From positions 48,112,001 to 48,176,000 of the forward strand of contig CM114271.1 of NCBI GenBank assembly GCA_050084515.1: 64,000 nucleotides of DNA. The letters run 5' to 3'. This stretch comes from Blasia pusilla. Lineage: Eukaryota. A program made the position numbers and the translations under genes. Shown here in pieces: positions 3,636-64,000 of the stretch. The notes beneath the pieces are model-generated. The model did no database searches and was not told the DNA's origin. It saw nothing but the letters and a program-made list of their open reading frames with translations. Numbering within the stretch: position 1 is the first letter of the stretch; each line of letters opens with the position of its first letter.

Positions 3636-6489
<2,854 letters not shown>

Positions 6490-14545: not shown

Positions 14546-16084
14546 AAGAGTGGGACATTCGACATCAAGCAAGGAGTGGCTCAAGGATGCCCGCTCTCCC
14601 CCACCCTCTTCAACATTTTCGTGAATTCCCTATTGGAAGAAATGGAGGATAGTGGACTAGGCATACAGGTGGGCAACAACTCTATTGTTGCCCTCATGTT
14701 TGCTGATGACTTTGGTGGCCTCGAGGAAACAGGAGAGAAACTCCAAGAGATGATCTCCCTTACCAAAATCTGCTGTGACATGTGGGGCATGGAGGCAAAT
14801 GTACTGAAGTGCGGTGTGATGATTTTCAATGGCAAGGAGGAGGACCAAGACCAACAGTGGTAATGGGGTGACCAAGAGATCCCCCGTGTGGCTACCTACA
14901 CCTATCTGGGCATAGAATTCTCGGAAGATTGCATGTGGGATGCACACATCAAGAAGACTACTGAGAAAGGCCACAAGAAGGTGAACGGTCTGTCTAGATT
15001 CCTATAGTGCCGGGACATCACATCATAAGTAAAGCGTTGTGTCATTTTGCATACCATTCGTCCCTCGCTGGAATACAGGGCAGCAGTGTGGGATGCCAAC
15101 ACCAAACAAAGGGATAGGCTTGAAGCTGTGCAGCTGAAGGCGTTTCGGGGTATGATGTCAACTTCATCACAAACAGCCCGCGTTGGTGTGAGATCAGAAC
15201 TAGATGTGGAACCCTTGGAGGATAGACGTGACATCGCCAAGTTGAAATGGCGGAGGCAGCTGGAGACAATGGACTCCCATTGCTATCCTAAAGAGGTGAT
15301 GGGGAAAACCTGGACCCAAAGAAGACCCGTACAACAGGCCAAATCTTGGACGAAGAAGGTTCAAGAGATTGTGCAAGCATCCAAGCTCCCAGAAGGGCCT
15401 GAACTGTGGGAGCAAGATGAGAAAGCATTCGTGGATACCATAACCAAAGCAGTGGGCAAACGCTCACAGCAGAATAGCAAGGAGGAAGCCATGAAAATGT
15501 CTGACCTCTCTCTTTTGACGGTATATCCCGAGAGGGCAGAATTGAAGAACTACTTGCGGGACCCCTTGCTTGGGAACCCAGCTCAAGTTCAAGTTCAGGA
15601 CGGGGGCAATCCCCTTGAACCATAAGAAAAGCAGGATGGGAATACAACTAAACTCTTGCGCCTTGTGTGACGATGGGGACGAAACCTCTGGTCATTACTT
15701 GGTCTCCTGCGCAAAATTCACAACACACAGAGCAAGAGCATATGCTGATATTGCTAAGCTGGTAGCACCAGAATAGTTCAACACATTCAGTAGCCTTGAT
15801 TCATTGCCCAAAGTCTTTGACTGGTAAGTAATGTCTATTGGGGATCCCAATCAGGTAAAGTAGATTGTGTGATGAAGAGTTTTTGGTTGACACTTGGAAG
15901 CTCCGCACAAACACGTTGTTTGGTCAGCACTCACACTATATGAGAATGTCTCCCTCCTCTCATATGGTACCTTCTTCACTTGCTTCTCTCTCTACACCCA
16001 TCCCAGTCTCAAACATCGTCCAACCAGGGCGTGGGTTTAGGTCTATGGTCGCAAGGCTACGACAAGCACTACTTAATGAGTACA

Positions 16085-25324: not shown

Positions 25325-25713
<389 letters not shown>

Positions 25714-40977: not shown

Positions 40978-41120
40978 TGTCTCACCAGGTAATACATGGC
41001 CAGCACACAATCCAGGTGAAAATGTTGCTAGTTCCACCAGTTCGGTCCCATGTAAGAGCTTAGGGCCAGATCAAAAGATCAGATCTACAAGATGTACTCC
41101 TTAACAGCTGTAAACCCCAC
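40978..41120 (-). mobile_element. Inverted fragment of the LTR end at 37872-38014
   Basis: TGTCTCACCAGGTAATACATGGCCAGCACAC...TGTAAACCCCAC is the reverse complement of 37872-38014 with few mismatches. Confidence 0.88.
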
Positions 41121-44100
41121 AGGAGTTCCAAGAAATTGTTCTGGCTGTCACCACGAGGTCCAAGAGTCAGACCGCGGGGACCCCCAAGGCAGGGAAAGGT
41201 GCCTCGTCTTCGCGCGAAGCTAAGGACCCCAAGACAAAAAGTGTCGACGCCTTCCGCGTCGAGAAGGCCATTCTAAAAGGCGATGTTGACCCGGCCTTCG
41301 ATCAAAGTCACCCTAAGTACTTCCATCAAGATATCGAGGACCAAATTTGGGCTCAAGTGCGTCAGGATCAGGGACCAGAAGGGAGGCAGACCACAGAGAA
41401 GACGAGAACCGGAATGACTCCTGCAGTGCAAGCCATCGCGACGTCACCGCTGGTCTTAGAAGCCTACGACTTACTCAGGAACTTGGCGTCAACCCCAGCC
41501 AATATAACCTTGCTGCAATTATTAATGGATAACCCGGTGTACGGCAAAATTTTGCAGCACCGGAAGATAATCCCTAGAAAACCCAAGAAGTCTGCAAAGC
41601 ATCTACTAGTAGTGGATCTGTTCCGTATCGAAGTGGAAGACTTGGGAGCACCAGAGGTAGAGGTGGAGATTGAGGGACACACCACTAAGAAGGTTCCCAT
41701 TGACTCACGAAGTGAAATTAAAATTATGACAGAACAGACAGCTCGGGCACTAGGATATACGGAGTACGAGCCCAGCGATAAGTATCTGCGGTTTGCAGAT
41801 CAGTCCCGAAAGTGAACCCTCAGACAACTCACTCAGATCCCGACCATGCTCGGCAGGGTGCTATTTAAGTTGGACTACTTAGTATTGCAGCCCCTAACAA
41901 CCACTGGCTATCCTTTGCTCATTGGAAGACCCTGACTGTATGGTGCAGGAGTGACTACGGATTGGAAAAGGAGACGTTTCACGTTCCAGGCTCCGGACCA
42001 GGTCTCCAAGCGGCTCATCAAGCTGTCATGGAAATCACGACCACTCCAAGGAGAAATGCCACCGACCAACGAAGGCTATACGTCAGATCAAGAGCAAACT
42101 ACAGCTACTGAGTCCTCGTCCAATGTGTATTATTTAGAATGTTACGAAATAGACGAGGAGTCGATACCTAGCAAACAGAAGTCGAACCGAGAAGAAGAGA
42201 AGCTGGGTCATAGCACATTCCAGTTTACAAAAAGTATGGTTCAAGAAAAAGGACTACATACAGGTCTTAATTACAGGTCAGAAGTCTCTACGCCTCTTGG
42301 CAGATTTGTCTCCCACCGAACTCATGAAGTATAAAAGATTATTGTTTGAGTATTTGGATGTGTTTGCATACTCCATGGATGAAATGACAGGAATTCTAGC
42401 ACAATATTTTGAACACCGAATTGACCTAAAAGAAGGTGCGGTCCCGGTACGAATGAGGCAGTTTCGCCTCAACCCGAAGTACTCGTTGTTAGTCAAGGAT
42501 GAGATCGACCAGCGTCTCGGGGCAGGAATAATTTATCCGGTGTTAAGTAGCGAGTGGATGTCTCCCATTGTGATTGTACCCAAAAAAACAAACGGAAAAA
42601 ATTAGAGTGTGCCAGGATTATTGGAAATTGAATGCGGCCACCTTAAAGGACCATCACCCCCTACCTTTCACTGACAGTATTTTGGACAAAGTTGCCGGCC
42701 ACGAGCGTTATACCTTTCTGGATGGATACTCGGGTTATAACCAGGTATCCATACGAGAAAAAGATCGGCCCCTCACCACTTTCACCACGGACTGGGGAAC
42801 TTTCGCGTATCGCGTGATGCCCTTTGGGTTATGCAATGCCCCAACTACATTCCAACGAATGATGATCTCCATCTTCCAAGAGTATCTGCGGAAGTTTGTT
42901 GAAATTTTCCTGGACGATTTTTGTATCTTCAGTACAGAAGCCGAACACTTGGAAAAATTAGAATTAACCCTTGCTCGTTGTCGTGAAGTGCATTTGTCCC
43001 TTCATCCGGAAAATTCGTATATTGCTATGAAACAGGGATTTTGTTGGGACACAGAGTGTCGGCTCAAGGAATTGAAGTCGACAAGGCCAAGGTGGATATT
43101 ATCGTCGCATTGGAACCACCCACCAATCTCCGAGAATTGAGAGGATTCTTGGGACACGTCAGATATTATCGACGGTTTATTAGAGATTATGCGGTGAAAG
43201 CAGGAGCTCTTACTGCATTACTTAAAAGAGCTACCGAATGGGAGTGGACCCCACCTTGCCAAGCGGCATTTGACGCTTTAAAGGGAGCATTGCAAAAGGC
43301 TCCTGTACTATGGTCCCCCGATTGGACCAAACCCTTCCACGTATATGTGGACACATCCTCGTTTGCCATTGGAGTGGTGCTCAGCCAACTGGATGAAAAC
43401 AAACATGACTTTCTGGTTTACTACGCAGGTCGGCAACTATCTTCAACGGAACAGAAATATACAACTACCGAACGAGAGGCGCTAGGCATGGTCTTCTCGT
43501 GTAAAAAGTTCCGACACTATTCATTAGGGTATGAATTTGTCTTCCATGTCGATCATTTTGCGCTCAGACCATTAATGGTGAAGGTAGACCTGTCTGGTCG
43601 CATTGCGCGATGGATCCTGCTGCTCCAAGAATTCACATTCAATGTCGTTCACCGTGCCGGCAAGGTTCATACCAATGCAGATTTTCTTTCCCGGTTGAGG
43701 ATGACGAACGCGGACCTGGCACAATCCGTCGATGACACCTTTCCCAACGAAGACCTGTTCCAGATCAAGGAGGACCGGTTGTGCCAATCTTTTTATGAGG
43801 ATATTTTGCGTTTTTTAATTACTCTGCGACTTCTCACCCCTATGACAGCGGAGGAACGAGCAGTTTTCTTACATAAGGTAGGACCATATGAGATATGTCA
43901 GGGGATCCTATTCAAATTAGGTGCGGATGAAGAGTATCGGCGATGCTTGGAAGCAGAAGAAATCCCCCACGTCATCAGAGCCATGCATACGGCTGATTCT
44001 GGTGGACACTATGCTGTAAAAAATACCGTTAAGAAAATCTTGGCCGCACGTTACTGGTGGCCAACTATATACAAAGATGTAGGTAACTTTATCCAGAGTT

Positions 44101-45270
44101 GTGATGCCTGTCAAAGAGCAGGTTGACCAACGGCAACCTCGCGGTGGCCTTTGGTACCCATCATGCCCCTAGCTCCTTTTGAAAAATGGGGTATTGACTT
44201 TGTGGACCCTATCTCCCCCGCTACTCGCCAAACACGGCGGAAGAATGTCCTTATAGCCACCGACTATTGTACCAAGATAGTCGAGGCGGTGGCCACGCAA
44301 AAAGATGACAGTGAAGCAGTGGCCAAATTTTTATACAAGATGATTATCACTTGGTATGGCTGCCCATTGGAATTAGTAAGTGATTGTGGCACTCACTTCT
44401 TAAACAAGACTATTGAGTCTCTAACTTCCCACTTTCTCATTAAGCATTGAAAAACCACGCCCTACAACCCTAAAGCCAACGGGTTGACGGAAAAATCTAA
44501 CGGCCTGATCTGCGGATATTGAATCGATTGACACTAACGTATTCATATGATTGGGACATGAAAATCGCCGCGGCATTGTGGGCATACCGAACATCTGAGG
44601 AGGTTACTACAAAGTATACCCCGTTCTTCCTGACTTATGGCGTTCATCCCTTGACACCTATTGAATGGAACCCACTTATTGAGTATTGGAAGGAACGAGA
44701 ACGGAGGCCGTTGGTGAAGTTTTCCAAGGAAGGAATGAGACCTTAGTTGCATTGGAAGAAGCACGCACGTTAGCTTTACGCCAGACAGAACATGTGCAAA
44801 ATGAACTCAAGCAACGTTACGATCGACATCTCCGGCCACAATCTATAAGCGTTGGAGACTTGGTGCTGTTGTACGATAACCGGTGGCTCAAGTTCCCCGG
44901 AAAATTAAAATTAAATTGGATGGGACCCTATCGGGTATTGGCCATCTATGATAACGGATCACTACAGTTGGGGAGCTTGCAAGGAGAATCCCTGCCCACT
45001 CGTGTCAATGGAATGCATGTTCGTCGATATTATGAGCCTCAACCCTACACGGACTGAAAGAGGAGGAAGGGGGTGAGCGACTGCCTCAAGCTTTGCAAAA
45101 GCACGAGGATACTGGGACTTTGCAAAGCGTGATGGATGGGAGCTTTGTAGAAGCGCGAAGCACAAGAGTTCTTGAGCTTTGCAAAGAAGTGAAGCGCCAA
45201 ACTAACTCTTACAGTTCCGGCGCCAACACCAACAGACGCTGGGACTATATAAGCGTCCCTACGGAACCAG

Positions 45271-47062
45271 ATGGGTATTTTCATGGACAGGGTCAACACA
45301 AAGTTGCGGAGCAGACCAAAGCGGGGCGTTCACCGAGATCGACATACCAGCATGCCTCGTGAAGACTCCACGCCCATTCTGCGACGTGCGGCCATGCCTA
45401 TGGTCAAGTTGTCCCCAGAACTGGTCGAAGCATTGGAAGAGCGATCTTTGGCGACTTTCTTTCAATCTAATTGGACATTGACATCAGGAGAACTCCTCGG
45501 GGAGCTTCGCTCCTCAATTGCAGCAGCCAAGTTTTGAAGAAAGGGTCTTCACTATTGAGCTCAGCCCCAACAATGGACACCGGATGATTGGCGAGCCACT
45601 TATATGCTCCCGGCTGCTCCAGAGTATGAGTATGATACTGAGGCCCTAGTAAAACACGAAGATTTATTGGCACTTGGTTGTGTCACATCTGATCGTTTGG
45701 GCAGGAATGGTTATAAGGCTGCGTCGTTGTCTCCGCCATTGTTTGGACAGTTTTGTAAGCATTTGATGATGTTATTTTATCCCGCTCGATCTTACTACCT
45801 AACAAATAAGCTCGTCAGGATGTGCTATATCCTTTGGAATCAGCACCTGGACCCCGAACCACCGGGAGTCGACTTCGCTTCCTTTGTCGACGGGCACGTA
45901 AGAGCAATGGTGGAGGCGCTTCATCCGAGCACGAAGTCATTCTTATCTCCTTTTTTAATCCATCTATATATTCATAAGCAGGAATTGACGGCACACGAAG
46001 CGCTCGATTGGTCGCAGGTCACTCCCATCCGCTTACCAAGAAAGAGCGGAGCGGCCACTAGTGGGAGCCGTGAAGTCACACCGCCATGCAAAGCAGCCCT
46101 AAGGCAACATCCGCATACTTCGGCTTCAGGCAAAGTCGAGGAATTCACCCAACTGCCGAGACCGAAGCGCGGCAGGGTCAATTTCAAAACACCCTCGGAA
46201 CTAGAACCTGCCACTCATGAGGACTCCGACGAGATGCCTTCGTGCTAGCCATCACCGTCCAGCACTTCGTCTCATGTCCTAGACAACCAACGATATGGTG
46301 TGGTTCCTGAATTTAGGTGTTCCGGTCATGAATCAACTTCAACACGTTCTCCACCTGGACGACACAGCGACGGTGGACGAGTATTTACAAGGCCTAGATG
46401 ACCTCAATTGTAGGGCCCAAGCTTCATCAAACAACGAAGTACAGCAGAAAGCGGTGGAAATAACTCTTCACCTGCGGGATCAAGAACTCGAAGACACGAA
46501 AACCACGCTTCACAAAGTTCAAAGCGACTTAGTCCAGAGTCAGTACGAGGCACGGAACACGCGCCAATGGGAGAGCTTGGAAATTAACCTAGAGTGTGGA
46601 GCTGATCAGTTAGCTTCGCAGGTCAAGGAAGCTTCACAACTGATTCAACAATATCGACAGCAGATGCATCGTGTTCATAACGAATTCAAGAAATTGGCCA
46701 CCCAACATGTTGAATCTTCGAAATTGCTTCAAGAACATCAAGAAACGAACAGAGACTTACTGGCGCAGTGGTCAGAGGTTACAGGGAGGATCGTTGTCTT
46801 GGAGGCAGAGCAGAAGCTACTCAACGAAGTGCAATTAGACCCTAAAGATGTCAAAGAGTTAATCGAGGAAGCATCCAAGAGCTTGGAACAACAAATGAAT
46901 GAAGAGATCGACTATATCAACAAACATTGGAAGTGCCAATTCGACAATTATACGAAGTCTCTTCCAGAAGTTGTGCCCACTCTTTCGATTACTCTTGAAG
47001 ACTTACCATTATTTACTCCATCTGATGTCTTAGTCCAGAATGAAGTACTAGGGAGTAAATAA
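45271..47062 (+). pseudogene. Extra ORF downstream of pol (env-like position) with a C-terminal coiled coil, interrupted
   Basis: Consecutive ORFs 45271-45537, 45604-46248 and 46295-47062 lie between the integrase stop and the PPT. The last is Q/E/K/L-rich. Confidence 0.6.
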
Positions 47063-48525: not shown

Positions 48526-51500
48526 TGTCACTACCAATGGTGGGTCTGGAACTGGAGCTCTCGGCTTCGGAGGAGAGTTTTACGCTCCAACTAGCCAATC
48601 GTAATTTGCCTCTGCCTCCTTGCAAAGGTCAAACAGTTGTTGCCTTCCCTCAAGGTAGAGAATGTTCTTGCCACTCTGCCAGGCGCCTCTGATACTCGCC
48701 CCTGAAAGGCCCACTAAGTCGAACACCAAGTCACCCGACCTTGAGCAGAGCTCGATGAGCGTTTGCATCAGGGCTGGCGACTTTTCCCTTCCTCCAAGTA
48801 ATGGGGTACCGTCTTGCATGAAAATTCCCGGGGGAAAATTGTATAAACTATCTAAGCTGTACCCATCGGAGCATGGATCCACAGGATCCAGGATCTTAAA
48901 CACCTGGAAGCTGTGCTCGAGCCGAACAAAGCAGTAAACATAGGAGTGGTCCATCTGTAAAGAAGCACGTTGGAAACAATGTCAGCAACAAACAAAGAGC
49001 TACTTGGCCACTGGTCTACTCTCAGTATGGTGACATAATGTGCAACACGTCCCCAAAGAACTTTGCTTAACCCCAACAAACTTCTTTATAATCCTAACAT
49101 TGGAGCAACCTGTCGGAGTCCGACGGGTTGTTTCACAAGTGTCTTGTGATTTTTTTGTCCATGAGCAACCCGTCGGAAGGCGAAAGGTTGTTCGCTTAGA
49201 GCAACCCATGGTTGGCTAAGAGCAACCTGTCGCTTTCACACGGGTTGCATCATTCCAGAAAATTGCAAAAGCATTAGCACTTGCAACTCGTCGGGTTCTG
49301 ACGGGTTGCATTCACCCAATGGAGACTTACGGTAAATTTGCAACCCGTCTCTTTCAGACGGATCGCAAACAGACCCAGCTCAAAAAATACGACGAGTTGC
49401 ATGCAGAGATGCAACCCGACGGAGAAAGAAAATTTGGATACAAATTTAGATCCCTTACCCGAATTTGACTCGTTGCGGATCGGAGTGGGTACTCGTTCTT
49501 GATGACCCACGATTGCGCCATCCTCCACTTCAGGGATCTCTTGACGCATTGGAGGTTGAAGAGCTTGTCCTTGCTCCCTCCAGTCAAAACTAAGAAACAA
49601 TCCGTGTCACTGAGATAAGCGTTTGCAAAGGAAAACAGGAGCGCAATCTGGTCATAAGAAAGAGGGACATTCCAGTCTGGGACTCGGTCGGACGGATTCT
49701 TGTCCCACAAGCGCAACCTCAAGGGCAAATCAGCGACGAGGAGATCCACCGCCACCTCTTCGACCTCCCCATGGACCGTCCAGGGAGCGTGGCCGTTTCG
49801 TTGAAGCTTTCGTCCCAACGTTGTCAATTTTTCGAAGGCGGGTGTTGACGCTTGGGAACTGAAACTTTTCAACTCATCCAGAAGATTCGTGTAGTGAAGG
49901 ATGATGCTTGTCCGGGTCGTTTTTTTTCTATGTCTTCCCAAGGATGATGGAATGTATTCCACATCGTGGTCTGCTCCCTGGGACAACCCTGGCGCCTCTC
50001 ACTTCCGCTTCTCCCGAGTCTACAGTCGGCTTGTTGGGGTCTCTATGACCTCAGACTTTGGTGGAGTTTTTTTTGCGGAGGACCTGGTCCGACCCTCTCT
50101 CCCCGCTCGCCCCAATGATTCTGGCTCTTGCCTTGAATTTTCAGCCTCTCTATGGGAAGACTTGGCCTCAAAATTCTTCGATCCCCTCGCCTTGGCTTTG
50201 AGACCCGCTGTAGATTTGTCCTTGGCGGTGACAACGACCTTGGACACCAACTCTGCTGTCTTGAGGGCTTGCTCCTCTGCATCTCCTTCGAAAAAGTCTT
50301 CAGGCTGCACAAAATTGGGGATATCGTCCCTACCTGCGGCCACTGCATCATAGAGCAGGCGTAGATCTTTCTCAGTTATGTCCTCGGGGTCGTTGAAGTC
50401 CAGCCAAATCGGGAAATTCTCCACCTCCCAATCGGACATGCTTTGAGCCATCTCCATGTCATACATGGAAAATGTCTCTCCATCAGGCGGAGAAGCCCAC
50501 AATTTGCAGGCTGCCGGTATTTTTTGCCATGTACCTCCATTCTTACAATGGACAAGGTACCTGAACACCATGCGTTGGGAAGCTCTTAGTCGAGATGCAT
50601 CGGCCGCATGCTCCTGAAGATTTCGCTTCTTCTTTGCGAAATCCCTTTTTTTTGCCTCTATTTCTTCGTCAAGGTCTGCCTGAGGGAGGATGCGATTATT
50701 GAACATCGCCTTGAAACCTGGGTTTCTTCGGGGCTTGTCCCGCATGTCATCCAACCAAAGTTCAAAATCTTAAGCACTCTCTAGGTTTGCTTCCTCCGGA
50801 ACTGGCTCTATTCTTTTCAGCTCCGCTTGGAGACCCACGAGGATGGACTTCCCGAGAAGCCGCAACGCGTCCCATAATGACCATTCACAGAGCCAGTGGG
50901 AGATCACAGGATCAGAGATACCCGGAGTATGGTGTGCCGCCCTCTTTTGGGCCTCTGTGCCCTCGAGACTGATTTTCATCTGTCGGATTCTCCTAAATTT
51001 GCTAATTCCAGACAAGGCAAATGGATGCATGAGATCGAGAGACACTTTCTCCCCAATCCGACCCTACGGATCTTCATCCCTCTTCCGTTGGCGCTTGATG
51101 ATTACTTTCAGCTCCTTGTAGAAATCAGAGCCAAGTTCGTGGTTGAGAATGACGATGTAGCGCTGCATCTTGCTTGCCGTGTACTTCGTAGCTGCAGATA
51201 CTGCATCATGGATGAACTTTGCACGCTCAGACATAGACACTTTCTCCCTCCGCTCCAGCTCCAATGCATCGCTCTTCTTGGCGGTTAGTATCTTCGACTA
51301 GCAAAGGATTGCCACGGCTGCATCTTGGGAAATAAACTTATTTGCCCAAGTCTTTTTTTTTATTTGAGCACCCTTTGCGAGCATCTCATTTACAAGGGCG
51401 TCGCCCAAGAACCCCTTGTTTATTGCCGGGTGCGTCGTTAGCACTTTCTTCACCCGATCGCAATCCTGGATCCAGTGGTGGGTGACATTCCCCTCCGATA

Positions 51501-51530
51501 CAATCCTGCACATCCAAACTCAATATTAGA
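48526..51530 (-). pseudogene. Copy 1 of the transposon cargo gene: middle region plus beta-class N6A/N4C DNA methyltransferase (no ParB exons)
   Basis: VDLLVADLP (motif IV-like), CFLVL (VI), WVIKN, intron 49458-48955, DHSYVYCFVR (VIII), REKSPALMQTLIELCSRSGDLVFDLVGLSGASIRGAWQSGKNILYLE (X, I, II). Internal stops. Confidence 0.75.
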
Positions 51531-52005
51531 AATTTTGCAATGTACATGGGTTCCTGCAACCCGTCGGACTTCGACAGGTCCTCACAACTGAGGTGCTGTA
51601 AGAGGAGAGGAAGAGAGGAAGAGAGGAGAGAGGAAACTACCTTCAACCGAAATAGATACTTTTTTTTTAAGAAAGTTTCCTCTGATTTGAAGAGAGTTTC
51701 CGTTGGGTTGAAGAGAGGAAACTTTTTGTGTGAATTTTTTTGCACTTTTTTGCTCAGTTATTAAGTAGTCCCACAATTTTTTTTTCTCTTCCATATTTTG
51801 GCAACCCATCTGAGTCCGACCGGTTGCAAATTGCACAAAATTTACAAAACTGAAAAATCAGTGGAATCATAAGTGTGGAACCAATCACTTTTTCCATCCA
51901 AGGTCTGGAAACAATCTATCATTTGCCCTGGGCTGAATAGAGTTCAAGCTCAAAGTGATGGTTCTTGAAGAATGAAAGTACAATCTAAAACCTCATTTTG
52001 CATCC

Positions 52006-55000
52006 TCAAAGTGGTTTGTTTAAAATACTTCGCACTTCTTTGAGGGACAGAATTGGTTGGTGGATTCCTACTCCTACCTCCGACTCTCTTAAAACTACCA
52101 GCAACACATAGTACATGTGCTTACAAGGGAAATACCTTTTGCCTCTCTCTTTGGACAAAGTCATCACATGAACATGTGGGAAAGCAACAGATATGCACCA
52201 CATACACCCCTGTGACACTTGTTCTTGACCCAATACATCCTTCCTATTCCATTGCCACTCAAGACATCTTTCGTGGCGATGATCTCCATTTTTGCCTCTC
52301 GAGCTGATGCAATTCGCTTTGCTCTCTCCACCGTTGGCCTACACATTCTGTTTCTCTTCACCCCATTTCTAGACTCAAACAGAAATAATGGATTGAGATC
52401 ATCCATCTTCTCCGGTACATGTTGACATCAATCTTGGGTTGAATACAAAATGCGAAGGTCTCTGTAATGCGAACATGCTCCGAACTTCCTCCGTCTACGA
52501 GTCTGAAACCGACACTTGTAAGATTGTCCACTTCGTCTTGAGTGCAGTTCGTACCTGCGGCGATGGGCCAAATCGTGGGGGTATTCCCGGGAGCTCCAAT
52601 GGCAGCCGGATAAGACTTCCGGAAAGTGCAAGATTCATTTGAGCAAAAGAAGTACTTCAATTGATCCCCGGTCCTCGTGAAACAATCAAAGGTTTTGAGT
52701 CCCCAAAACCCAGGCAGTGGTCGTCCAGTCCTTGTACAGTTCTTATTTAGGAAAGTGCCGCATGCTCTCCTAATGCCATCAGATCCTACCCTGCAGGTGG
52801 GTCCACGTCCTGGATTGCTCTGAGATATATGCCATCGTTTTAGGTTGCAATCCACCTCCATTAACGGAATCCCATATTGTTGAACCACCCGAGTGACCGG
52901 ATGTAGGGAACTTCCAGCAACGGAGGGCTTTTGAAATAAAACATTCACTGATTTTGGAAAAGGGTCTCCATCACAGATTTGGGAGCGTCCGGGGTCCCCG
53001 AATACCTGGGCGGCGTAATTTCCTCATCCAAATCAATCACCAAATTTGTTCCTCGATGCTGCCTCTTCACCTGCCTGAAGTCAAGATACTTATTTGGCCT
53101 CCACGAGTCTCGCTCCGACTGCTCTACCACCATCTGTATGGGACGTCTTGAAACCCGCCCACAAATATCCCCACCAATGTGTACGTCTTGCTCGAGGGGA
53201 GTTCCACTTACGCACCGGTTGAAGGCTTCCACATACAATTTTTCATCACTAGATCTCACAGCCTCTTTGACATAGAGCTCGTAGATCGACGGCCCCCTTC
53301 CTTTTGTTATGCCTTTTATGAGGAAGATATGGGATGCTGCAGACTGTAGCATTGCTCTTGCCTGGTCTTGTTGGCATGCCTCCACAAGTGAAATTCCTTG
53401 GCATGCTTGTGACGACCTCTAGGAGGAATGAACACTTTCTACTCCACTTGTGTTGGGGCAGAGGGCATTTTCATGAATGTTCAATCCCTGCAACGACGAC
53501 AATGTTAGAAGGGAACGAAAATAGCTCAAGAGTCAAAGAAATAAGCTACCTATCAGAAACAGATGGGTTGCAAGGCCAAGGCATCCCATGAACGACTCTG
53601 CGACTCGTCGAGTCCCGACGTGTTGCAACTCTAAACCCAACTACTTCAACCCGTCGGATTCAGACGGGTTGCAAGAACCTTTGGCCACTCCGGGTTGGAA
53701 GATCCAAGTGCAAGTCATCCGAAACTCATCCGGGTCAAACTATTTTCAGGTCTTGTATACATGCAACTTGCATACTTGGATACGGGTTGCACCAAAATTG
53801 TGGATGCAACCCGTCGGATTTCGACGGGTTACACACTCGGGCAACCCGTCGCATCCGACAACTTGTTGGGTTTCTTCGGTTTGAAATCCCTATAGTTCCC
53901 ACGCTTCTCAACTTGAGCTGCAACTTTACAAACAATTCTCAGCGTGAGCTTGACAAGACAAAATAGTCAACTCACCTGCCGCATGAAGTTTCCCCATTGT
54001 CTCATATGTACAGTCCACCAACTCAACCAAGAGCACAACTCTTTGTACTTCCCCTCAATTGCATGCTTCCTCCACCACCCATGAAGTTCTTCTTGGCATT
54101 CCATGGCCTGTTTCAAGGTTTTGCTGTCCTTGCAGCGTTGGAGTAGAGTGACATGCTCTGTCCTCTTATTCTCCTTGATGCAAGATTTGGTGTACCGGGT
54201 CACAGATTGTTGCCAATGGAAAGCATCCCACCTTTCCCTCTCCAGTTGAACCTCTCCACCCCAGAACACTTCTCGAATAGCAATCCACCCAGGTTGTGCA
54301 TTGTCCGCCATGAACCCATAAATTTCCGGAGGAGGCCTTTTGTTTTCCTTCACCACCTCCAATAAGAGTAACCAGCACATCTTCAAACTGCCAACGTCTT
54401 ATGCTTTTACTTCACAAAAAAATATAGTTTTGAGTCCCTTCTCCACATGGTCATAAACGTGAGCACCCATTGTCAACCATCCGTTCAGCACTCTATAGCA
54501 AATATCAAAGCTTACCCAGCTACCGTAAAGATCTTCCCCTTCCCTCATTCGATCTATAAGATTGAGGCCACCCAACGGACCTGTGGTTGACATTTTGAAG
54601 ACATAGGCCCTAGATCCCTCGCCTCCTTGGCCCATGAACTGCCATCTCTGAATGAATGGAAATTTGGAGTTGGCCTTGATTCTGGCGATGGCATCCATTT
54701 TGGCCGTCTTTCCATCCAGAACCCATATTTGACGCAGCAAATTCCGGAAGCATTCAGGATCAGCGAGAAATACGAGATTTTCCGAGAGTTATTTCTCCTC
54801 AGCCGCCGTGATCTCGCCCTGTCCACGGATTCCAAGTAATTGTTCAAAAATTTGTGATGTTGTTGTGAGCTTGATCACTCCGGGCTTTGAACCTGGAGAG
54901 TTTCTGTAGACCTCGCCAACTTTCTTCGCCACATCCTCCTTGATGTGTCTCTGAATTGCATCGGTCATAGGATGAGTGTGGGAGCCAACATGAACTGCCA

Positions 55001-55850
55001 CCCTTGTGTACTCCGACGTAGAGCCCAAGTGGTGGACAATGAAAAATATGTATGCAGGACACGCTCCAACGTAGAAGGGCGATGCCTGACAATGAGGACA
55101 TCGATGGCCTCCCGGCGGTATGGTGGCACCGACCTCGTATGGAGTTTCTGCATTCTTGGGGGGGAATTGCGACATATTGACTTGCTCGTTGCGCTCTAGA
55201 TACGTGCATGCTGGACTTCTACACTCCAAGGCTCCAACGCATTGGCGACGGGAAAAAATCCAAGGACCATATGGAATTGAAGCACTAGTCCGTTGAAGCC
55301 TGCACCATCGATAACAATCAGACTGTATGTCCATACCCTTCAGGAGTCCTCCATCTTTCTTTTGAGCAGGAGCAACAAGTGGAGGCTACTCAAAAATGCA
55401 ATTACCATCGTAAGTGGGCGGCTGCTCGTCGACAAGAATGTGCTTGAACATTTTCAAGGCCAGAGACCATAGCAAACTATTGCCTGATACTCGCAAGAGG
55501 AACGAGTAGGCAGATAGAGGGCCCGGTTGGTGTCTGACATATCCACTGAGGTTGATAACATCCGGAATCTCTTCAGGAAGAACAACATTGTTACGAGCGT
55601 GTGAAGTTGGAGTCAAAGCCAGATCTATTGAGCTAGGAGTTGCAAACGTAGAGCTTGGTGCACTAGGAAATTCTTGATTGTCTACTTGGGAAACAGAGGA
55701 ATTCAGGGGCAAGCCGTAAACTCTGTATTGACCATTTGCTAGAGGTAGGAGATTCCATACTTTACAGTCTGAAATCAATGGCTGGACTGTCTCACCTATA
55801 ATGTCCTCCATACCGTCCACACTAACATCCTTGGATACAAAGATGGTTCC
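52006..55850 (-). mobile_element. Mutator-superfamily transposase pseudogene: GCM-like zinc finger, DDE core, SWIM finger
   Basis: CVGALECRSPAC...CPHC...C...HVGSHTHP; SFDICYRVLNGWLTMGAHVYD; GFMADNAQ; DAFHWQQS; CSC...PCKH (frameshifted). Intron donor near 53975. Stops at 55386, 54789 and 54399. Confidence 0.75.
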
Positions 55851-55899
55851 AATTTGGAGAAGAAATCAGAGACATGGGTTGCGAAGCACACTTCATTTT

Positions 55900-56900
55900 G
55901 TTGGAACCCGTCGGAGTCCGTTGGGTTGGTACCCCCTTCTTGCCGACCGAAGATCTTTTGAGGCGATTTTTCTAGCATCAAACATAAGATATCGCTTGCT
56001 TATGCTAGGGCAACCAATCGTTGGGGACTTTTGCGGGATTGTCCAACTCAGGGTACATCTTGTGACCCGTCGGATTGCAATGGGTTTCCTCGGAACAATA
56101 CGTTGTCGCATTGTTTCCCGAGGGATAGGAAAGAGTGTAGCCTATCGATAATCGATGGGTTGCCCTGGTACCTCGCCTATTAACCCAAGATAAGCGAAGT
56201 GTGCAACCCGTCGGCTTTGGGGTTGCACGCTTCTGCCTCACCTTGTAACGCAAACATGAACGAAGCTGGCAACCTGTCGCTCTCCGACGAGTTGCGCAAG
56301 TACCGCGCCTTCTTGCCCGAAGACAGTGGAGGCGCCCAACCCGTTGGCCTCAGAGGAGTTGCGAAATTATCTCACGGTGTAACACTTACATTAAGGAAGC
56401 GTGCAAACCGTCTGTTTCCGACGAGTTCCGCGGGTGCCGCACCTTCTTGCCCAAAGACGGCGAGGCGTGCAACCCGTCGACCTCAGACGGGTTGCGCAAG
56501 GGCCTCGCCTTGTTTTACTTACATGAAGGAAGCGTGCAATGTGTCGGCCTCCGAAAAGTTGCACGGGAAGCCCGTGTTGTTATCCCTTGACGAGGGAAGT
56601 GTGCAACCCAACGGTCTCCGAAGGGTTGCGCGGGTACCTCGCCTTCTTGTCTGAAGACGGCGGAGGCGCGCAACCTGTCGGTCTCTGACGGGTTGCTCAG
56701 GCACCTCGCGTTCTTGTCCCTAGGACCGCGGAGGCGCGCAACCTATCGGACTCCGACGGGTTGCCACGAGGACGGATGCCTTGAACCCTCGGGAAGCGTG
56801 CAACCCGTCGAAGCCGTCGGGTTGGTGTTTTTCACGTCCAGACTTCTGTAACGGCTGGCACGTCGCGGTCGGAAGGACGATGCAACCCAACGGTCAGTCC
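55900..56900. repeat. Array of ~66-67-bp units, each containing the palindrome GCAACCCGTCGGA-n-TCCGACGGGTTGC
   Basis: Degenerate palindromes at ~56203, 56269, 56335, 56402, 56469, 56535, 56603, 56669, 56738 and 56800. Confidence 0.88.
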
Positions 56901-56914
56901 AATGGCTCGAAAAG

Positions 56915-56922
56915 TATAAATA
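56915..56922 (+). promoter_or_regulatory. Candidate TATA box of the ParB-MTase gene
   Basis: TATAAATA just after the palindrome array, followed by a pyrimidine-rich initiator-like stretch, 335 bp before ATG 57250. Confidence 0.5.
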
Positions 56923-57022
56923 GGGGAGAAATCACTCATTTCCAGTTTTTCATTTTGCGATCTCAATTGCTCTCCCGTGCACCAACTGACCTGATACCAA
57001 GGTGCGCTTTACACGGCGACTC

Positions 57023-57161
57023 ATCGCGAGACGATTCGAGCGAACGATCGTGAGACGATACGAGTGAACGATCGCGAGACGATACGAGGGAACGATCGCG
57101 AGACGATTCGAGCGAATGATCGCAAGATAATTCGAGCGAACGATCGCGAGACAAATCGAGC
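57023..57161. repeat. 24-bp CpG-rich tandem repeat, ~5.8 copies
   Basis: ATCGCGAGACGATTCGAGCGAACG units starting at 57023, 57047, 57071, 57095, 57119 and 57143. Confidence 0.92.
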
Positions 57162-58423
57162 TACCCATCAAGGCGACTCATCTTGACATCAGCAAGGCGA
57201 CTCATCAAGCGATTCATCGTGCACATAGGTGGAGGCATTTCCGGGAAAAATGATGAGGAAAAAATCTCAAGCAAACAAGGCTGGGAGCTTCACTCCCAAG
57301 TCCATCAGAACTCCTGCGTCACCATCTCCAAGGCCTCGTTCGGCCAATGAGATAAGGCAGCAAGAAATCGAGGAGCAAGAAAGGGAAGCGGAGATGCACA
57401 AGCAGGAGCTTCTTGCAAAACGTGTATAGGAGGCGCTCAAAAAATAGAATGCAGAGGCTGAGGCGTCACAGGCCTTGAAGAAAAAATTATTTACGAAAGG
57501 CGAGAAAAGAAGCGTCCGGACGCGTTGGTGAGGAGAGAAGAATTGGCTAAAGCTTGGAGGGAAAAAGAAATAGCCATTGAAGAAAGCCCTGCCCGTCCAG
57601 CCGAAAGTGTTGAGATGCAGGAAATGTCTCCGATGAAGTCCGGGGACACAATCAATATAGCGGAAATGGCCGAAGTTCAAGTCACGGACGATGAGGTCAT
57701 GAGGACCGCCAGCGTGGAGATGGTGGACATCGCTGAAGAAGTAGGAGAGCGGTCATCCTCGTCTCTAAGCCCGGTGGAAGAAATCGACCTCTATCGGATC
57801 GACAAGTTTCCAGTGGACTTGCCAAAGCAGTTGGCTGGCCAAGACACTGACCCAATCTTCGAGCGGGTAAGAGAGGATCTGTGTTTTTTGAATTATGTGA
57901 AGGCCCATGTTGCAATTCATTGGCAATTCAGTGTAGCTTATTGATCTTGTTCCCATTGTGACAGGTGGTAAAGCAGATGGCACTGATGGAGGGCCACAAC
58001 GCCCCGAGAATTCCACTCTGCCGATTGCGGACAATGGAGTACGTCCGTAAAATTTAGTCTGACGAGGATATTGCGAAGCTCAAACAATCGGCGGCGACAA
58101 CATCCTACGTCGACAGCTTCCCTCCATTCTATGTTCAGCCTTTTGATGACCATGGAACCCAAGCGCTGGTTACGGGGGAGGACTTGGAATCGCTCGACAC
58201 ATTCTGGAGGATGAGAGATCAGGAATTCAGAAGGGCGATAGAGGGGACGGAATTCAGCTGGATGAGGAATCTGTATTTCTTCATTTGGGATGGAAATCAC
58301 AGGTTCATGGCGTTGTCATGTCGAGAGTCTTTCTTCGAGCAAGGGCAGGCCTTCTAGCTGCGGTAGATGCGGTCGATGCAAGGTGAACTCTCTAATAAGT
58401 TCTCCTTTTTCAATACAAAATTA

Positions 58424-59541
58424 TGATGTACACTCTCCATTCTCTCACGACAGGTATCACAAATGGAAGTGCCGAGGCGATCACTTCTTTGTAACATCGG
58501 ACCCCGAAATTCCTAACTATAAAATCCCTATAAACTATTTTATGTTTGTACACGAGGAAGATAGCACAACTAGTGTTAAACCCTACTTGACCAGGCCTAT
58601 TGACATCCATGGATCGCTATATAAGGACATACAAAGTACAATCCCATGTCCTTCCATATGTGACGATAGGAAGAATCACGGAGTTGGAGATTGCATGACC
58701 TGGTTCATGAACGCCTCCCCAAAGTGATAAACTAAATAGCGAGTGAACCAGTGCCTATCTACAAAGAGTACCTTGACATGGTAAGGATTGAGGAAAGGAA
58801 AGTCGGGCACAGCTCGTGCTCCACCCCTATCCATGCTTGACAGACATTCTCTACTCTCCTCAAGAATGGGTTTTGGCGGAGTTATTCTCCCAAGAGGGGT
58901 AATCCACTCTCATTGGGAAAGTAACAAGCCAAAACATCCGCTATTTTAGTATGACTAGACTCCTCTACGGTGACAAACCTCTCATGCCCCCCACACACAC
59001 ACACCACACTCTAGAAACCTCTCGAAGAATAGACCATGATCAAGTTACTCTCCCAAGAGGGGTGATCCACTCTCATTGGAAGAGCAAGCAATCCCAAAGC
59101 CATACACTCAAGAGAGACACGAGAGACTCAAGATGTGGAATAGAAGGTGATGAACCCTTGAAGGTCCCTCCTCTTTATATACTCACAAGGGATCCACAAG
59201 AGTACGAAATAGAGCTTATCTTATCTTGTGCCACATGGCTTCCTCTCAAGGCTTAGCCAATCACATTTTGACACAAGTAGATTTCCTCTTATCTCTTCCA
59301 AAATATCCTCTTTTACCCACATGATATTTTCCAAATTACCCCAACTAACCTAGCCACCAACCAAGACTACTTTTGTTTTTCATTAAAGCAACTACTTTAC
59401 TTTTGTAAAGTCATCTTTTATTTATTACCTACTTTTCCTAAAGTTGGGCCCGCATAAAAGAGGCACCATAAAGAGGTTTAAACATAAGAATCTCCTTTTT
59501 CTAAGCCAATTTACTTAATACTAATGAAACTCTATCTAACA
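58424..59541 (-). mobile_element. Probable solo LTR inside an intron of the ParB-MTase gene
   Basis: Minus strand starts TGTTAG and ends ACATCA. It has a TATATAAAG box and lacks the host element's palindromes. No clean TSD seen. Confidence 0.55.
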
Positions 59542-59734
59542 CTTAATGACGACGGAGTTTACACACTGGTCGATTTTACTATACGACAGCGTGGACAAAG
59601 TTTGCAGAGGAGCGCCCAAACTCATTGGAGGCACATTTTTGCGTGAAGGCAGTGGTGCTACATCCATACCCTCATCACATGGCGACGGTGGAGATGGCCA
59701 TGCATGCCATGAACACGTAAGTTTCTTCTTGCTG

Positions 59735-60432
59735 CAAACCGTCGGACTCTGACAAGTTGTTTGAGTCGCCATTATTTTTGGGATGTTTTTGGCCAAAAGC
59801 AACTCGTCGGACTTCGACGAGTTGTTTGACTGACCACAAGTTTAGGATGTTTTTGGCCCAAAGCATCTCGTCGGAGTCTGACGAGTTGCTCGACTGGCCG
59901 CATTCTTTGGATGTATTTTGAAGAAATCAACTCGTTGGACTCCGACGAGTTGCTTGAGTGGCCGCATTCTTTGGATGTATTTTGAAGAAAGCAACTCGTC
60001 GGAGTCCGACGAGTTGCTCGACTCGCCGCATGTTTTGGATGTTTTTTGAAGAAACAAACTCGTCGGAGTCGGACGGGTTGCTTGACTCAAAGCTGTTTTT
60101 GAATGTTTTTTGATGTTTTGGCTGAAAGCAACTCGTCAAAGTCTGACAGGTTGCATTCGGAAGTTGGGAGCTACATTTTTGGCGTCAAATTGCAGCTTTC
60201 ATTGAAATTGCGCAACCTGTCAAACTCCGACGGGTTGATATGTTCACTTTTTTCGCGGTAACCACTATGTAAATACGGACTATCTGACAACCCGTCGGAC
60301 TCCGACGGGTTGAAACCAGGCAATCAAAAATCTGAATGCAATCCGTCGGACTCCGATGGGTTGCAAAATTTAGCTCGTTGCTACAATCCAACCATGAGCT
60401 GTGACGACCTGTCGGAGTCCGACGGGTTGCAA
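59735..60432. repeat. Intronic array of ~64-bp units with the same palindrome
   Basis: GCAACTCGTCGGA-n-TCCGACGAGTTG variants at ~59735, 59799, 59862, 59927, 59991, 60055, 60128, 60211, 60288, 60338 and 60405, lying between the GTAAGT donor (59717) and the CAG acceptor (60480). Confidence 0.9.
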
Positions 60433-63400
60433 GAACCCATGTACCTTACAAAATTTCTTATATTGAGTTTGGATATGCAGGATTGTATCGGAGGGGAATG
60501 TCACCCACCACTGGATCCAGGATTGCGATCGGGTGAAGAAAGTGCTAACGACGCACCCGGCAGAGTACAAGGGGTTCTTGGGTGACGCCCTTGTAAATGA
60601 GATGCTGGCAAAGGGTGCACAAATAAAAAAGAAGACTATGGCAAATAAATTTATTTCCCAAGATGCAGTCGTGACAATCCTTTGCTGGTCGAAGATACAC
60701 GCCGCCAAGAAGAGCCCTGCATTGGAGCTGGAGCGGAGGGAGAAAGTATCTGTGTCTGAGCGTGCAAAATTCATCCAAGCTGCAGTATCTGCAGCTACAA
60801 AGTACACGGCAAGCAAGATGCATCGCTAAATCGCCATTCTCAACCCTGAACTTGGTCTTGATTTCTACAAGGAGCTGAAGGCGATAATCAAGCGCCAGCG
60901 GAAAAGGGATGAAGATTCGCAAGGTTGGATTGGGGAGAAAGTGTCTCTCGATCGCGTGCATCAATTTGCCTTGTCTGGAATAAGAGAATTTAGGAGAATA
61001 CGACTGATGAAAATCAGTCTCGAGGGCACAGAGGCCCAAAAGAGGCCGGCACACCATCCTCCGGGTGTCTCTGATCCAGTGAAATCCCATGGACTTCTTG
61101 AGAAGACGTGTTGCGGCTTTTCAGGAAGTCCATGCTCAACGGTCTCCAAGCGGAGCTGAAAAGAATAGAGCCACTTCCGAAGGAAGCAAACGTGGAGAGT
61201 GCTGATGATTTCGAACTTTGGCTTGATGACATCCGGGACAAGCCCATAAAAAATCCAGGTTTCAGGACGATGTTCAAGGATCGCATCCTCCCTCAGACAG
61301 ACATTGACGAAGAAATCGAGGCGAAAAAAAGGGGTTTCGCAAAGAAGAAGCGAGATCTTCAGGAGTAGGCGGCCGATGCATCTCAACTAAGAGCTGCCCA
61401 ACGCATGGTGTTCAGGTACCTCGTCCATTGTAAGAATGCAGGTACATGGCGAAAAATACCGACAGCCTGCAAATTGTGGGCTTCTCCGCCTGATGGAGAG
61501 ACATTTTCCATGTACGACACGGAGATGGCTCATAGCATGTTTGATTGGGAGGTGGAGAATTTCCCGATTTGGCTGGACTTCAACGACCCTGAGGACATAA
61601 CCGAGAAAGATCTACGCCTGCTTTATGATGCAGTGGCCGCAGGTAGGGATGACATCCCCAATTTTGTGCAGCCTGAAGACTTTTCCGAAGGAGATGCGGA
61701 AGAGCAAGCCCTCGAGACAGCGGAGTTGGCGTCCAAGGTCCACACAACCAAAGACAAATCTACATCGGGTCTCAAAGGCAAGGCAAGGGGATCGAAGAAT
61801 TCCGAGGCCGAGTCTTCCCAAAGAGAGGCTGAAGATTCAAGGCCAAAGCCGGAATCGTCCAGGCGAGGGGGGAGAGAGGGTCGGACCAGGTCTTCCGCAA
61901 GAAAAACCCCACTAGAGTCTGAGGTCATAGAGACCCCAACAAGCCGACCGCACACTTGGGAGAAGCGGAAGCGAGAGGCGCGAGCGTTGTCCCAAGGAGC
62001 AGACCAGGATAAGGAATATAGTCCATCATCCTTGGGAAGACATAGAGAAACAACGACCCGGAAAAGCATCATCCTTCACTTCACGAAACTACTGGATGAG
62101 CTGAAAAGTTTCAGTTCCCAAGCGTCGACACCCGCCATCGAGAAATTGACAACGCTCGGATGGAAGCTTCAACGAAACGGGCACGCTCCGTGGACGGTCC
62201 ATGGGGTGGTCGAAGAGGTGGCGGTGGATCTCTTGGTCGCTGATTTGCCCTAGGGGTTGCGCTTGTGGGATGAGAATCCGTCCGACGGGGTCCTAGACTG
62301 GAATGTCCCCCTTTCTTATGACCAGATCGCGCTCCTATTTTCCTTTGCAGACGCTTATCTCAGTGACATGGGTTGTTTCTTAGTTTTGACTAGAGGGAGC
62401 TAGGACGAGCTTTTCAACCTCCAGTACGTCAAGAGGTCGCTGAAGTGGAGGACGATGCAATCGTGGATCATCAAGAACAAGTACCCACTCCGATCCGCGA
62501 CGAGTCAAATTCGGGTAAGGCTCTATTCCTCTCTCCAGATTATATTTCTCCGACGGATTGTTTTTGTCCATGAGCAACCCGTCGGAAGGCGACAGGTTGC
62601 TGGTTGAGAGCAATCCGTCACTTTCCGACGGATCGCATCATTCCACAAACACAGGGAAAACGCATTACCACCTGCAACCCGTCGGAACCCGACGGGTTGT
62701 AGGTGGTAATGCATTTTCCTTGTTGGAAAAATCTCGTTTTTTATTACCTCCGAAGGAACCTCGGAAATGTACATTTGATGTAGTCTATGATTTCTTCAAC
62801 CTCGTCATCTACAAATATACTCCTAACTCTCCTAGGTTCCTCTACAAAAGGAATGTCTTGGGATACAAGTGGCTCCTGTGGCCGATTATAGACGGGGATC
62901 GAAAATGTTAGCGAATTTGAGAGCCTTGGCCCCCCCCTAGGTACACCATAACGGTCCCATGTAACCTGATTTGAGTCCCACCGCCTTCCTCGGTGGTATA
63001 TCTTGTACGCTCTATAATGTGACACCCATCCAGTATCAATATGTGCTTCGTCCTTGAAAATACCATGATGGCAATCCCACAAGTAGTAGGAATCCAGCAC
63101 GTCTGAGAGAAGAGAAGAAGCCTACGCCTTGTTTGACGATACTAGGGGAAGGTGCCAAAGTGAAGAAGCCGGCCAAACTGCCTCTTAAGTTGGACCAAGA
63201 GGGAAAGAGTCTGATCACTCACTTAACCAACGTGTTGGAATCCGACAGGTTGCCTAGAAGTGGTTAAAAAGGTGCAGTGGTCAAAAAGTGAAAAGTTGCA
63301 AGTCGTGGAAATCCGACGGGTTGCAAATTAGAAGTCCTCGGAGTACATAGACAATCACAGTCGAAAAGACACAAAAGATATTCAGCAAACTTTTAGAAAC

Positions 63401-63555
63401 ACCACCATCGTTCGAAAAAATTTTGTCCTTTATTAGATCCGAAAGAAGCTCGGAACTGTACATTTCATCTATTCTATGAATTATTTTGCCCTCGTCATCA
63501 AATAAATCCCTACTCCAAACGTTGCAATCAAGCTGGGTCCTTGAGTTCTTTGAAC

Positions 63556-64000
63556 TCACTCATCATTGTTCGAGAGCTCTTGCAAAATTACTTTCCGCCT
63601 TGCCCTCCCGATTTTTGGAATCGTGTTAAGTGACGATGGTGTCACTACCAATGGTGGGTGTGGAACCGGAGCTCTCGGCTTCAGAGGAGAGTTGTACGCC
63701 CCAACTAGCCTCTCGTAATCTGCCTTTGCCTCCTTGCAAAGGTCAAATAGTTCCTGCCTTCCCTCGAGGCAGAGAATGTTCGTGCCACTCTGCCAGGCAC
63801 CTTTGATACTCGCCCCTGAAAGGCCTACTAAGTCAAACACCAAGTCACCCAGCCTTGAGCAAAGCTCGATGAGCGTTTGCATCAGGGCTCGCGACTTTTC
63901 CCTTCCTCCAAGTAGTGGCGTACCGTCTTGCATGAAAATTCCCGGGGGGAAATTGTATAAACTATCTAAGCTGTACCCATCGGAGCATGGATCCACAGGA
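63556..64000 (-). pseudogene. Copy 3: C-terminal methyltransferase exon (continues beyond the window)
   Basis: REKSRALMQTLIELCSRLGDLVFDLVGLSGAS. 63640-64000 is a direct repeat of 48526-48886. This exon has no internal stop, so the status of the full copy is unknown. Confidence 0.75.

Follow-up and report, generated by a model that had tools for sequence, protein, structure and literature searches.

Does a DNA transposon of a plant carry a DNA methylase gene of prokaryotic type, and could the product of such a gene still modify DNA? The question is raised by one end of a 64,000-nucleotide stretch of the Blasia pusilla genome (GenBank assembly GCA_050084515.1, contig CM114271.1, positions 48,112,001 to 48,176,000 of the forward strand), which is referred to here at its full length as the window and is numbered from its first letter. 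A first-pass annotation of positions 48,526 to 64,000, made from the letters alone, described a Mutator-like transposon in which a transposase gene stands head-to-head with an intron-bearing gene for a fusion of ParB and a DNA methylase. The reading favored here, with a probability of about 0.6, is that the 48.5-64 kb region consists of decayed, rearranged pieces of one multi-copy DNA-transposon-like element with two divergent genes, one encoding a transposase-like protein and the other being a methylase-derived accessory ('cargo') gene.

The accessory gene is present as three partial copies, and the window contains no whole copy; every one of them carries in-frame stops or frameshifts or is truncated. 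The 5' part is missing from the left copy (48527-51505, minus strand), and the last exon from the right copy (57250-62514, plus strand), which is frameshifted as well; unrelated DNA follows its intron remnant beyond about 62723. The third copy, recognized by self-comparison of the window, is a last exon only (63641-64000, 360 bp, minus strand) that runs off the window edge. The same self-comparison yields an inverted pair of 2.2 kb (49412-51589 and 60397-62560, 89% identity, arms 8.8 kb apart) and a direct pair (48526-48886 and 63640-64000, 92.8% identity) at a spacing of 15,114 bp. The first-pass annotation had assembled its methylase from a composite of copies 1-3, which is correct as a description, although none of the copies is complete and each is a pseudogene.

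Four features of the sequence indicate that the accessory gene is nevertheless a real coding gene family. First, the stop codons of one copy are sense codons in the other, for all five stops of the left copy and all four of the right. Second, the ratio of nonsynonymous to synonymous substitution rates (Ka/Ks) between the two copies is 0.47 (669 codons, with 14 codons skipped). Third, exon identity between the copies is 89.6%, compared with 64-73% for the alignable part of the last intron. Fourth, when 1.84 billion representative proteins were searched by HMMER, the last exon returned nine matches at E <= 1e-3, among which are five true relatives: the Ceratodon purpureus 'hypothetical protein M758_9G084500' (P0010, 758 amino acids) and four short fragments that come from assemblies of metagenomes or sequencing runs. 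The remaining four matches (P0005, P0006, P0007 and P0009) are repeat proteins and were dropped. A further search that started from a second Ceratodon protein, P0014, recovered three Ceratodon paralogues and nothing else. The only named relatives are four 'hypothetical proteins' of this moss (P0010, P0014, P0020 and P0021), which carry locus tags of the 9G, 3G, 6G and 1G series and are 76-94% identical to P0014. No homologue was returned by a word-index search with the accessory-gene read-through in the 'near' length band, and metagenome scans gave no relative.

The large exon of the window aligns over its whole length with P0010 and P0014 at 23-24% identity, and tblastn of the Ceratodon proteins against the window finds the last exon at E about 1e-10 and the exon part corresponding to the catalytic half of a methylase at E 4e-5. 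Gene structure is observed at two splice sites. The last intron is supported because annotated Ceratodon proteins span its junction, which bears out the first-pass claim that the gene has introns. The accessory gene is a member of a dispersed, multi-copy family, as the four Ceratodon paralogues have tags of four chromosome series. That the element as such is multi-copy is also seen from an extra transposase-like fragment at 13.8 kb of the window.

The C-terminal half of the accessory protein shows homology to beta-class N6A/N4C DNA methylases, and for the half of the domain that binds S-adenosylmethionine (AdoMet) this homology is established by profile comparison. A profile built from 14 family sequences matched eight sequences in the PDB, all eight of them beta-class N6A/N4C methylases, with E values of 3e-5 for DpnA (the best), 0.02 for CcrM, 0.07 for M.RsrI and 0.8 for N4CMT. 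When the family was compared by hhalign with four phage methylases, each of which passes the PF01555 cut-off, the global alignment was collinear over 228 columns (Prob 97.9, E 2.3e-12), and the local alignment of the C-terminal half gave an E value of 4.7e-11 over 59 columns. The last exon found 175 phage records by tblastn at E <= 1 (best E 1e-3); 13 of the 15 best records are annotated as DNA methylases, and the other two carry no annotation. With PADLOC, all six matches of the window last exon and all six of P0010 are to MTase_II or MTase_III models. Sub-threshold matches to the Pfam family N6_N4_Mtase occur in four of the five relatives (E 1.8e-4 to 0.063, 13.6-22 bits), and the matches to this family all fall at the same end of the profile, at positions ~165-217 of 221. 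Approximately 60 residues are alignable with bona fide methylases. The prokaryote-type, beta-class amino-methyltransferase ancestry proposed in the first pass is thus upheld by the PDB profile search and by hhalign.

The AdoMet-binding half has kept G-x-R-E-K, G-D-x-V-x-D and G-A-S, as well as the Glu of motif II and the Asp that follows strand 1. Motif I has another residue in place of its first Gly, both in the window copies and in all relatives whose alignment covers it. In the catalytic half, W-x-x-K-N falls on the usual W-x-K in the global hhalign alignment, and the place of motif IV is occupied in the left-copy large exon by VDLLVADLPLRL. The position of motif IV aligns to the D-P-P-F of the phage enzymes; it reads A-D-L-P-L in the two window copies and A-D-A-P-E in four of four Ceratodon proteins. 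It is not of the form (D/N/S)-P-P-(Y/F/W), as the second Pro and the aromatic residue are both missing from the window copies and the four moss proteins. A protein atlas search with the catalytic half gave MT-A70 at 0.88, which is a lead only. The proposed motif order IV-VI-VIII-X-I-II, a permuted order with the catalytic half before the AdoMet-binding half, is plausible: the last exon matches the AdoMet-binding end and the global alignment is collinear. The motif IV that it invokes, however, is not DPPY-type. Catalysis is doubtful because motif IV reads D-L-P-L or D-A-P-E. A standard methylase is unlikely, and the domain may still bind AdoMet or DNA. With motif IV replaced in the window copies and four moss relatives and all window copies being pseudogenes, the deposition of N6-methyladenine (6mA) or N4-methylcytosine (4mC) that had been suggested for the element is unlikely as stated.

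The two genes are tied together by a family of 25-bp palindromes with 12-bp arms and the consensus GCAACCCGTCGGA-N-TCCGACGGGTTGC. The 64-kb window holds 28 sites where 0.13 are expected, and none of 100 shuffles reaches 28. Nearly all of them (26/28) lie in 49.1-63.3 kb, the other two lie in a separate transposase-like fragment at 13.8-14.1 kb, and there are none elsewhere in the window. All are non-coding, being located in the transposase intron (both copies), the last intron of the accessory gene (both copies), the intergenic region (6) and the long intron of the accessory gene (10). CpG-to-TpG decay is visible in many sites, and 14 of the 28 have a GANTC centre. The palindrome was not found in viral and prokaryotic contig collections. 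The first-pass observation that one palindrome family is shared by the introns of both genes and the region between them therefore stands, with 28 element-specific sites. Being common to both genes, these palindromes argue more strongly than any other evidence for a single unit, and they appear to be the likeliest cis sites for the proteins of the element.

The transposase-like pseudogene (52006-55865, minus strand) was delimited by its open frames. Its main frame runs from 55865 to 53967 and has 633 codons with three internal stops and a terminal stop. An intron-like stretch with palindromes at 53651 and 53811 follows at ~53419-53966, and open pieces continue from 53418 to 52006. Self-comparison reveals the separate fragment at 13809-14545 (minus strand), an intron with two palindromes and an exon piece, which is 88-93% identical to 53597-54298. 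The length of the frame, its recurrence elsewhere in the window and its decay are what a transposon gene would be expected to show. Read by eye, the frames contain the motifs SFDICY ... FMADNAQ ... WDAFHW ... VEAFN, spaced as D(71 aa)D with D-A-F-H 28 residues on and V-E-A-F-N in the next exon, and CxxC...CxH stands near the end. This D...D...[C/D]xxH...E pattern resembles the signature of Mutator-like elements (MULEs). The first pass had described a GCM-like/DDE/SWIM transposase at 52.0-55.9 kb on the minus strand; a long decayed frame is indeed present there, but MULE, SWIM and GCM are without profile support. With its motifs seen by eye only, no Pfam match and no terminal inverted repeat (TIR), the label 'Mutator-like' is a reasonable guess rather than a finding. 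As a separate observation, the fragment at 13809-14545 adjoins one copy (14546-15659) of a sequence of the long interspersed nuclear element (LINE) type, and one may have inserted into the other; the other LINE copy, inverted and 92% identical, lies at 4086-5204, with RVT_1 at 4839-5867 (minus strand, E 2.4e-28).

The ParB-like N-terminal part proposed for the accessory protein is a motif-level lead only. In the ParB/Srx fold, the arginine-rich box II motif is of the GxxR or DGxHR type. The right copy starts at the ATG at 57250 with a Lys/Glu-rich 5' exon region (57250-57866, plus strand), in which the reading frame shifts between 57429 and 57462 through decay or a small intron, and a GT..AG intron (57867-57964) leads to an exon at 57965-58354 (plus strand) that reads ...FIWDGNHRFMAL. 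WDGNHR is encoded at 58286-58303 of this exon, downstream of an in-frame TAG at 58055-58057. Two donors of phase 2, GT after 58302 and GT after 58382, match the phase of the large-exon acceptor between 60480 and 60481. Donor 58382 requires one frameshift, and with this mended the reading is ...RARAGLLAAVDAVDAR-IVSEG, which is ParB-like by eye only. The motif alone is weak, as a chance DGxHR is expected ~0.4 times in six frames of 64 kb by a rough estimate.

The WDGNHR exon had no ParB match in Pfam, PDB, NCBIfam, PADLOC or phage tblastn. Plasmid tblastn gave no ParB and four unrelated matches at E 4-9, and the protein atlas assigned no family. For hhalign, a 24-sequence ParB_N profile was assembled from an F-plasmid query, with its seed passing PF02195, and 23 of 62 plasmid loci, leaving out L063 (stop codon) together with near-duplicates, short pieces and some loci by choice. 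The comparison gave E 0.53, with the best local match on the expected first segment. The ParB part of the F plasmid itself found only three records among phages. The motif noted in the first pass is present, in an exon with sound splice sites, but no profile or statistical support accompanies it.

The layout of the region can be followed from left to right. The 3' flank of the left copy (48527-48582, minus strand) marks a sharp end of homology with the third copy. The homology of 48526-48886 with 63640-64000 begins abruptly at GTCACTACC, with the sharp end at 48527, 54 bp beyond the stop codon. The last exon of the left copy (48583-48954, minus strand) encodes the AdoMet-binding half with motifs X, I and II and is the part identified by Pfam, tblastn, the PDB profile search and hhalign. 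The last intron (48955-49458, minus strand), read from the sequence and crossed by the moss proteins, is GT..AG, phase 0, and holds palindromes at 49110 and 49288. The large exon (49459-51505, minus strand), defined by translation and by alignment to the Ceratodon proteins, encodes a middle region and then the catalytic half (~49459-49800); from 51505 to 49459 it forms one frame of 681 codons with five in-frame stops. Homology with the right copy stops at 51589, within an intron remnant and spacer (51506-52005) that extends to the 3' end of the transposase-like gene and has palindromes at 51561 and 51806, as located by self-comparison and palindrome search.

Repeat and palindrome searches resolved the divergent intergenic region (55866-57249) into six palindromes (55908-56759), 67/134-bp tandem units (56236-56764) and a 24-bp tandem repeat. 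The last of these, ATCGCGAGACGATTCGAGCGAACG in 5.8 copies at 57023-57161, ends ~90 bp upstream of the accessory-gene ATG, is distinct from the palindromes and may be promoter-proximal. The same searches found an array in the long intron of the right copy (59740-60425), where a 64-bp tandem unit is repeated 5.8 times (59740-60113) with one palindrome each and is followed by four sites up to 60425. A direct repeat of ~35 bp (..CTCCCAAGAGGGGTRATCCACTCTCATTGG..) occurs twice in this intron, ~165 bp apart at 58880-59090, and may mark an unrelated small insertion. The large exon of the right copy (60481-62514, plus strand), as aligned to its inverted counterpart in the left copy, has 89.6% identity, four stops and three deletions (10, 3 and 1 bp). 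Alignment to the left-copy intron identifies the remnant of the last intron (62515-62723, plus strand), with palindromes at 62579, 62615 and 62679.

The rest of the window contains other repeats and many remains of mobile elements. A Gypsy-type long terminal repeat (LTR) retrotransposon pol region lies at 41114-44123 (plus strand) with RVT_1, RT_RNaseH and Integrase_H2C2; its reverse transcriptase, ribonuclease H and integrase parts are at 42.6-44.1 kb, and it is probably decayed, being split over overlapping frames. An AT-rich satellite (30877-33191, extending to ~33445) has ~13 copies of a 181-bp unit with 79% matches and a GC content of ~0.31-0.33, and it could be centromeric or pericentromeric. 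Two (GA)n/(TC)n microsatellites of ~230-265 bp (3636-3901 and 25407-25640) are 99.5% alike, both being simple repeats. A tandem array at 36215-36717, inside a minus-strand open frame, is built from a unit of 32-34 bp and shows higher-order periodicity at 70 and 102 bp. Just upstream of the element, two adjoining long open frames of 229 and 259 amino acids (45559-47059, plus strand) have no Pfam match.

Several results weigh against the reading of the region as one transposon-like element with a methylase-derived gene that has lost its activity. The Pfam match of N6_N4_Mtase to the window last exon (E 0.026, 14.9 bits) is below the gathering cut-off of 26.7 bits. The catalytic half alone gives a weak hhalign result (E 0.057, landing exactly on motif IV), and has no HMMER match and no tblastn match in phages. 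Two structure predictions reached mean pLDDT (predicted local distance difference test) values of only 30.4 and 37.9, too low to give the fold of this half. Unusual active sites exist, which bears on any loss of activity that is read from motifs alone. The Ceratodon gene models begin downstream of the supposed ParB position, and none of the four has a ParB part. Only one instance of the head-to-head arrangement of the two genes is present, and the left accessory-gene copy is instead placed tail-to-head after the transposase-like gene on the minus strand. For the transposase-like frames there is no match to MULE, Transposase_mut, SWIM, FAR1, WRKY, KDZ (Kyakuja-Dileera-Zisupton) or other transposase families in Pfam up to E 10, no match in NCBIfam or PDB and no word-index homologue in the 'near' length band. 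Finally, the sharp end at 48527 shows no TIR and no inverted partner within the window, which has no full-length copy, and mobility is not demonstrated.

The alternative that survives best, and which we consider possible though clearly less probable than the favored reading, concerns the class of the element: it would be a DNA transposon of a non-Mutator superfamily, for instance one of those (Kyakuja-Dileera-Zisupton, Plavaka, CACTA) whose fungal and red-algal members carry DNA-modification cargo. The lack of any MULE, Transposase_mut, SWIM, FAR1 or WRKY match fits such an assignment, and in red algae methylase and ParB cargo is described, in the accessible part of the report, on Plavaka, Zisupton and Mutator elements alike (10.1101/2025.02.11.637652). 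The KDZ and other transposase families are, however, equally without a match, and the spacing of D(71 aa)D, D-A-F-H and V-E-A-F-N resembles the MULE signature.

The first-pass annotation taken in full, in which the cargo of a Mutator-like transposon is a ParB-methylase fusion still able to deposit 6mA or 4mC on the element itself or on its targets, is judged unlikely. Descent from a methylase is evident from the PDB profile and hhalign, and the WDGNHR exon lies upstream on the same strand with splice phases that fit the large exon and with its best local ParB_N alignment on the expected first segment. GANTC, the centre of half of the palindromes (14/28), is the site of CcrM and of HinfI-type beta-class enzymes, and CcrM is among the PDB matches. 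Fusions of ParB with N6_N4 methylases are common in phages, as the available part of one survey reports (PMC12704722). Against these points, motif IV is without the second Pro and the aromatic residue and motif I has lost its first Gly, no library searched gave a ParB match (hhalign E 0.53), the supposed ParB part lies before the start of the moss proteins, and all copies in the window are broken.

Least probable is the idea that the methylase-like gene represents a host gene family of the ordinary kind beside a transposon, its repeats produced by local inverted and tandem segmental duplication. In its favor, the large arms form an inverted pair with 8.8 kb between them, the last exon recurs at 15,114 bp, the search for a TIR was negative and the annotation of the moss relatives is that of plain genes. 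Against it, one palindrome occupies introns of both genes and of the separate 13.8 kb transposase fragment, all copies are pseudogenes amid other transposons, the moss paralogues are dispersed, un-named and 76-94% identical, and five true relatives only among 1.84 billion representative proteins are a misfit with a conserved host gene.

Compared with the PF01555 enzymes (DpnA/M1.HpyAVI, 5hek; CcrM, 6pbd; M.RsrI, 1eg2; and the bdelloid N4CMT, 8s9m), the domain of the favored element is homologous in the AdoMet-binding half and appears to be collinear, with the catalytic half first. It differs from them in its motif IV, which is D-L-P-L or D-A-P-E, and in its motif I, which is [ST]-G-A-S rather than G-S-G-T-T. 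It also differs in its setting, as it ends a protein of ~1,200 residues encoded by an intron-bearing eukaryotic gene with an exon below the Pfam cut-off. VANDAL Mutator-like elements of eudicots carry the anti-silencing protein VANC, which is thought to bind short motifs spread over its own element. The locus resembles them, by description only, in combining an element that may be of Mutator type with an accessory protein and short motifs dispersed over the element, and VANC is not known to be a relative of methylases.

A closer likeness, again drawn from description only, is to the giant Plavaka, Mutator and Zisupton elements of red algae, for which the accessible part of the report describes PAG2 (an N6-adenine methylase with SET) and PAG3 (a ParB-like part with a 2-oxoglutarate (2OG) oxygenase) beside tandem inverted repeats (10.1101/2025.02.11.637652). 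Both cases would have a DNA transposon with methylase and ParB-like accessory parts by inverted-repeat arrays, and mostly degenerate copies. As far as that description goes, the red-algal parts are separate genes with SET and 2OG fusions, whereas the Blasia parts would form one gene in a land plant; the accessory gene of the window has no SET or 2OG domain match in Pfam. These methylase and ParB accessory genes are a printed precedent for the general idea of the first-pass annotation (10.1101/2025.02.11.637652).

Prokaryote-type adenine methylase domains on eukaryotic mobile elements are also known from the DIRS1 retrotransposon, where the domain was judged inactive from its motifs (PMC4738411), and from DAM-LTR retrotransposons, which are reported to be absent from Streptophyta (10.64898/2026.05.21.726589). 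In the portions of these sources that are available, both are retrotransposons with methylases of other clades, while the present case would be a streptophyte DNA element. ParB-methylase fusions are typical of phages and prophages according to the accessible text of two papers (PMC12704722, PMC4738411). The order of parts proposed for Blasia is the same as in phage ParB-N6_N4 fusions, with the differences that the ParB part is at motif level only and that ~700 residues lie between the parts. In the literature covered, supplements aside, no paper was found on this plant family or on a methylase-like accessory gene on a land-plant DNA transposon.

How the favored element might have worked can be sketched on this basis. 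Its first gene would encode a large transposase-like protein with the Mutator-type D...D...[C/D]xxH...E pattern recognized by eye. Its second would encode an accessory protein of ~1,200 residues whose C-terminal domain descends from a permuted PF01555-type N6A/N4C methyltransferase and in which the catalytic (D/N/S)PP(Y/F/W) loop has been replaced by D-L-P-L in the window and by D-A-P-E in moss. The accessory protein would, we infer, no longer be a standard base-flipping methylase. It is more likely to be a DNA- or AdoMet-binding factor that probably acts on the 25-bp palindromes of the element, which crowd both the promoter region that the two genes share and their introns. In this respect, it would be comparable to the self-binding accessory proteins of the VANDAL and red-algal PAG elements. 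Carried further, and at somewhat longer odds than even the active fusion considered above, intact bryophyte members might encode a ParB-like and amino-methylase-derived protein that marks GANTC-centred palindromes through an unorthodox active site, or clamps them, and so lets the transposon escape silencing by 5-methylcytosine and small RNAs.

Among eukaryotes, methylase domains of the PF01555 type are very rare. N4CMT of rotifers is described, in the available part of its report, as being without eukaryotic homologues (PMC8885841). The worth of the present locus is limited by the fact that its copies are dead and its catalytic motif is gone, and its mobility and any activity are putative. A dispersed, intron-bearing PF01555-derived family of moss-type genomes that is found together with a transposase-like gene and palindromes nevertheless extends the theme of mobile elements with DNA-modification parts to land plants, and it gives a name to proteins that are now filed as hypothetical. 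If a ParB-like and amino-methylase protein did act on the palindromes of its own element, no earlier prokaryote-type amino-methylase system would be known from a DNA transposon of land plants, and the case would parallel the red-algal PAG cassette.

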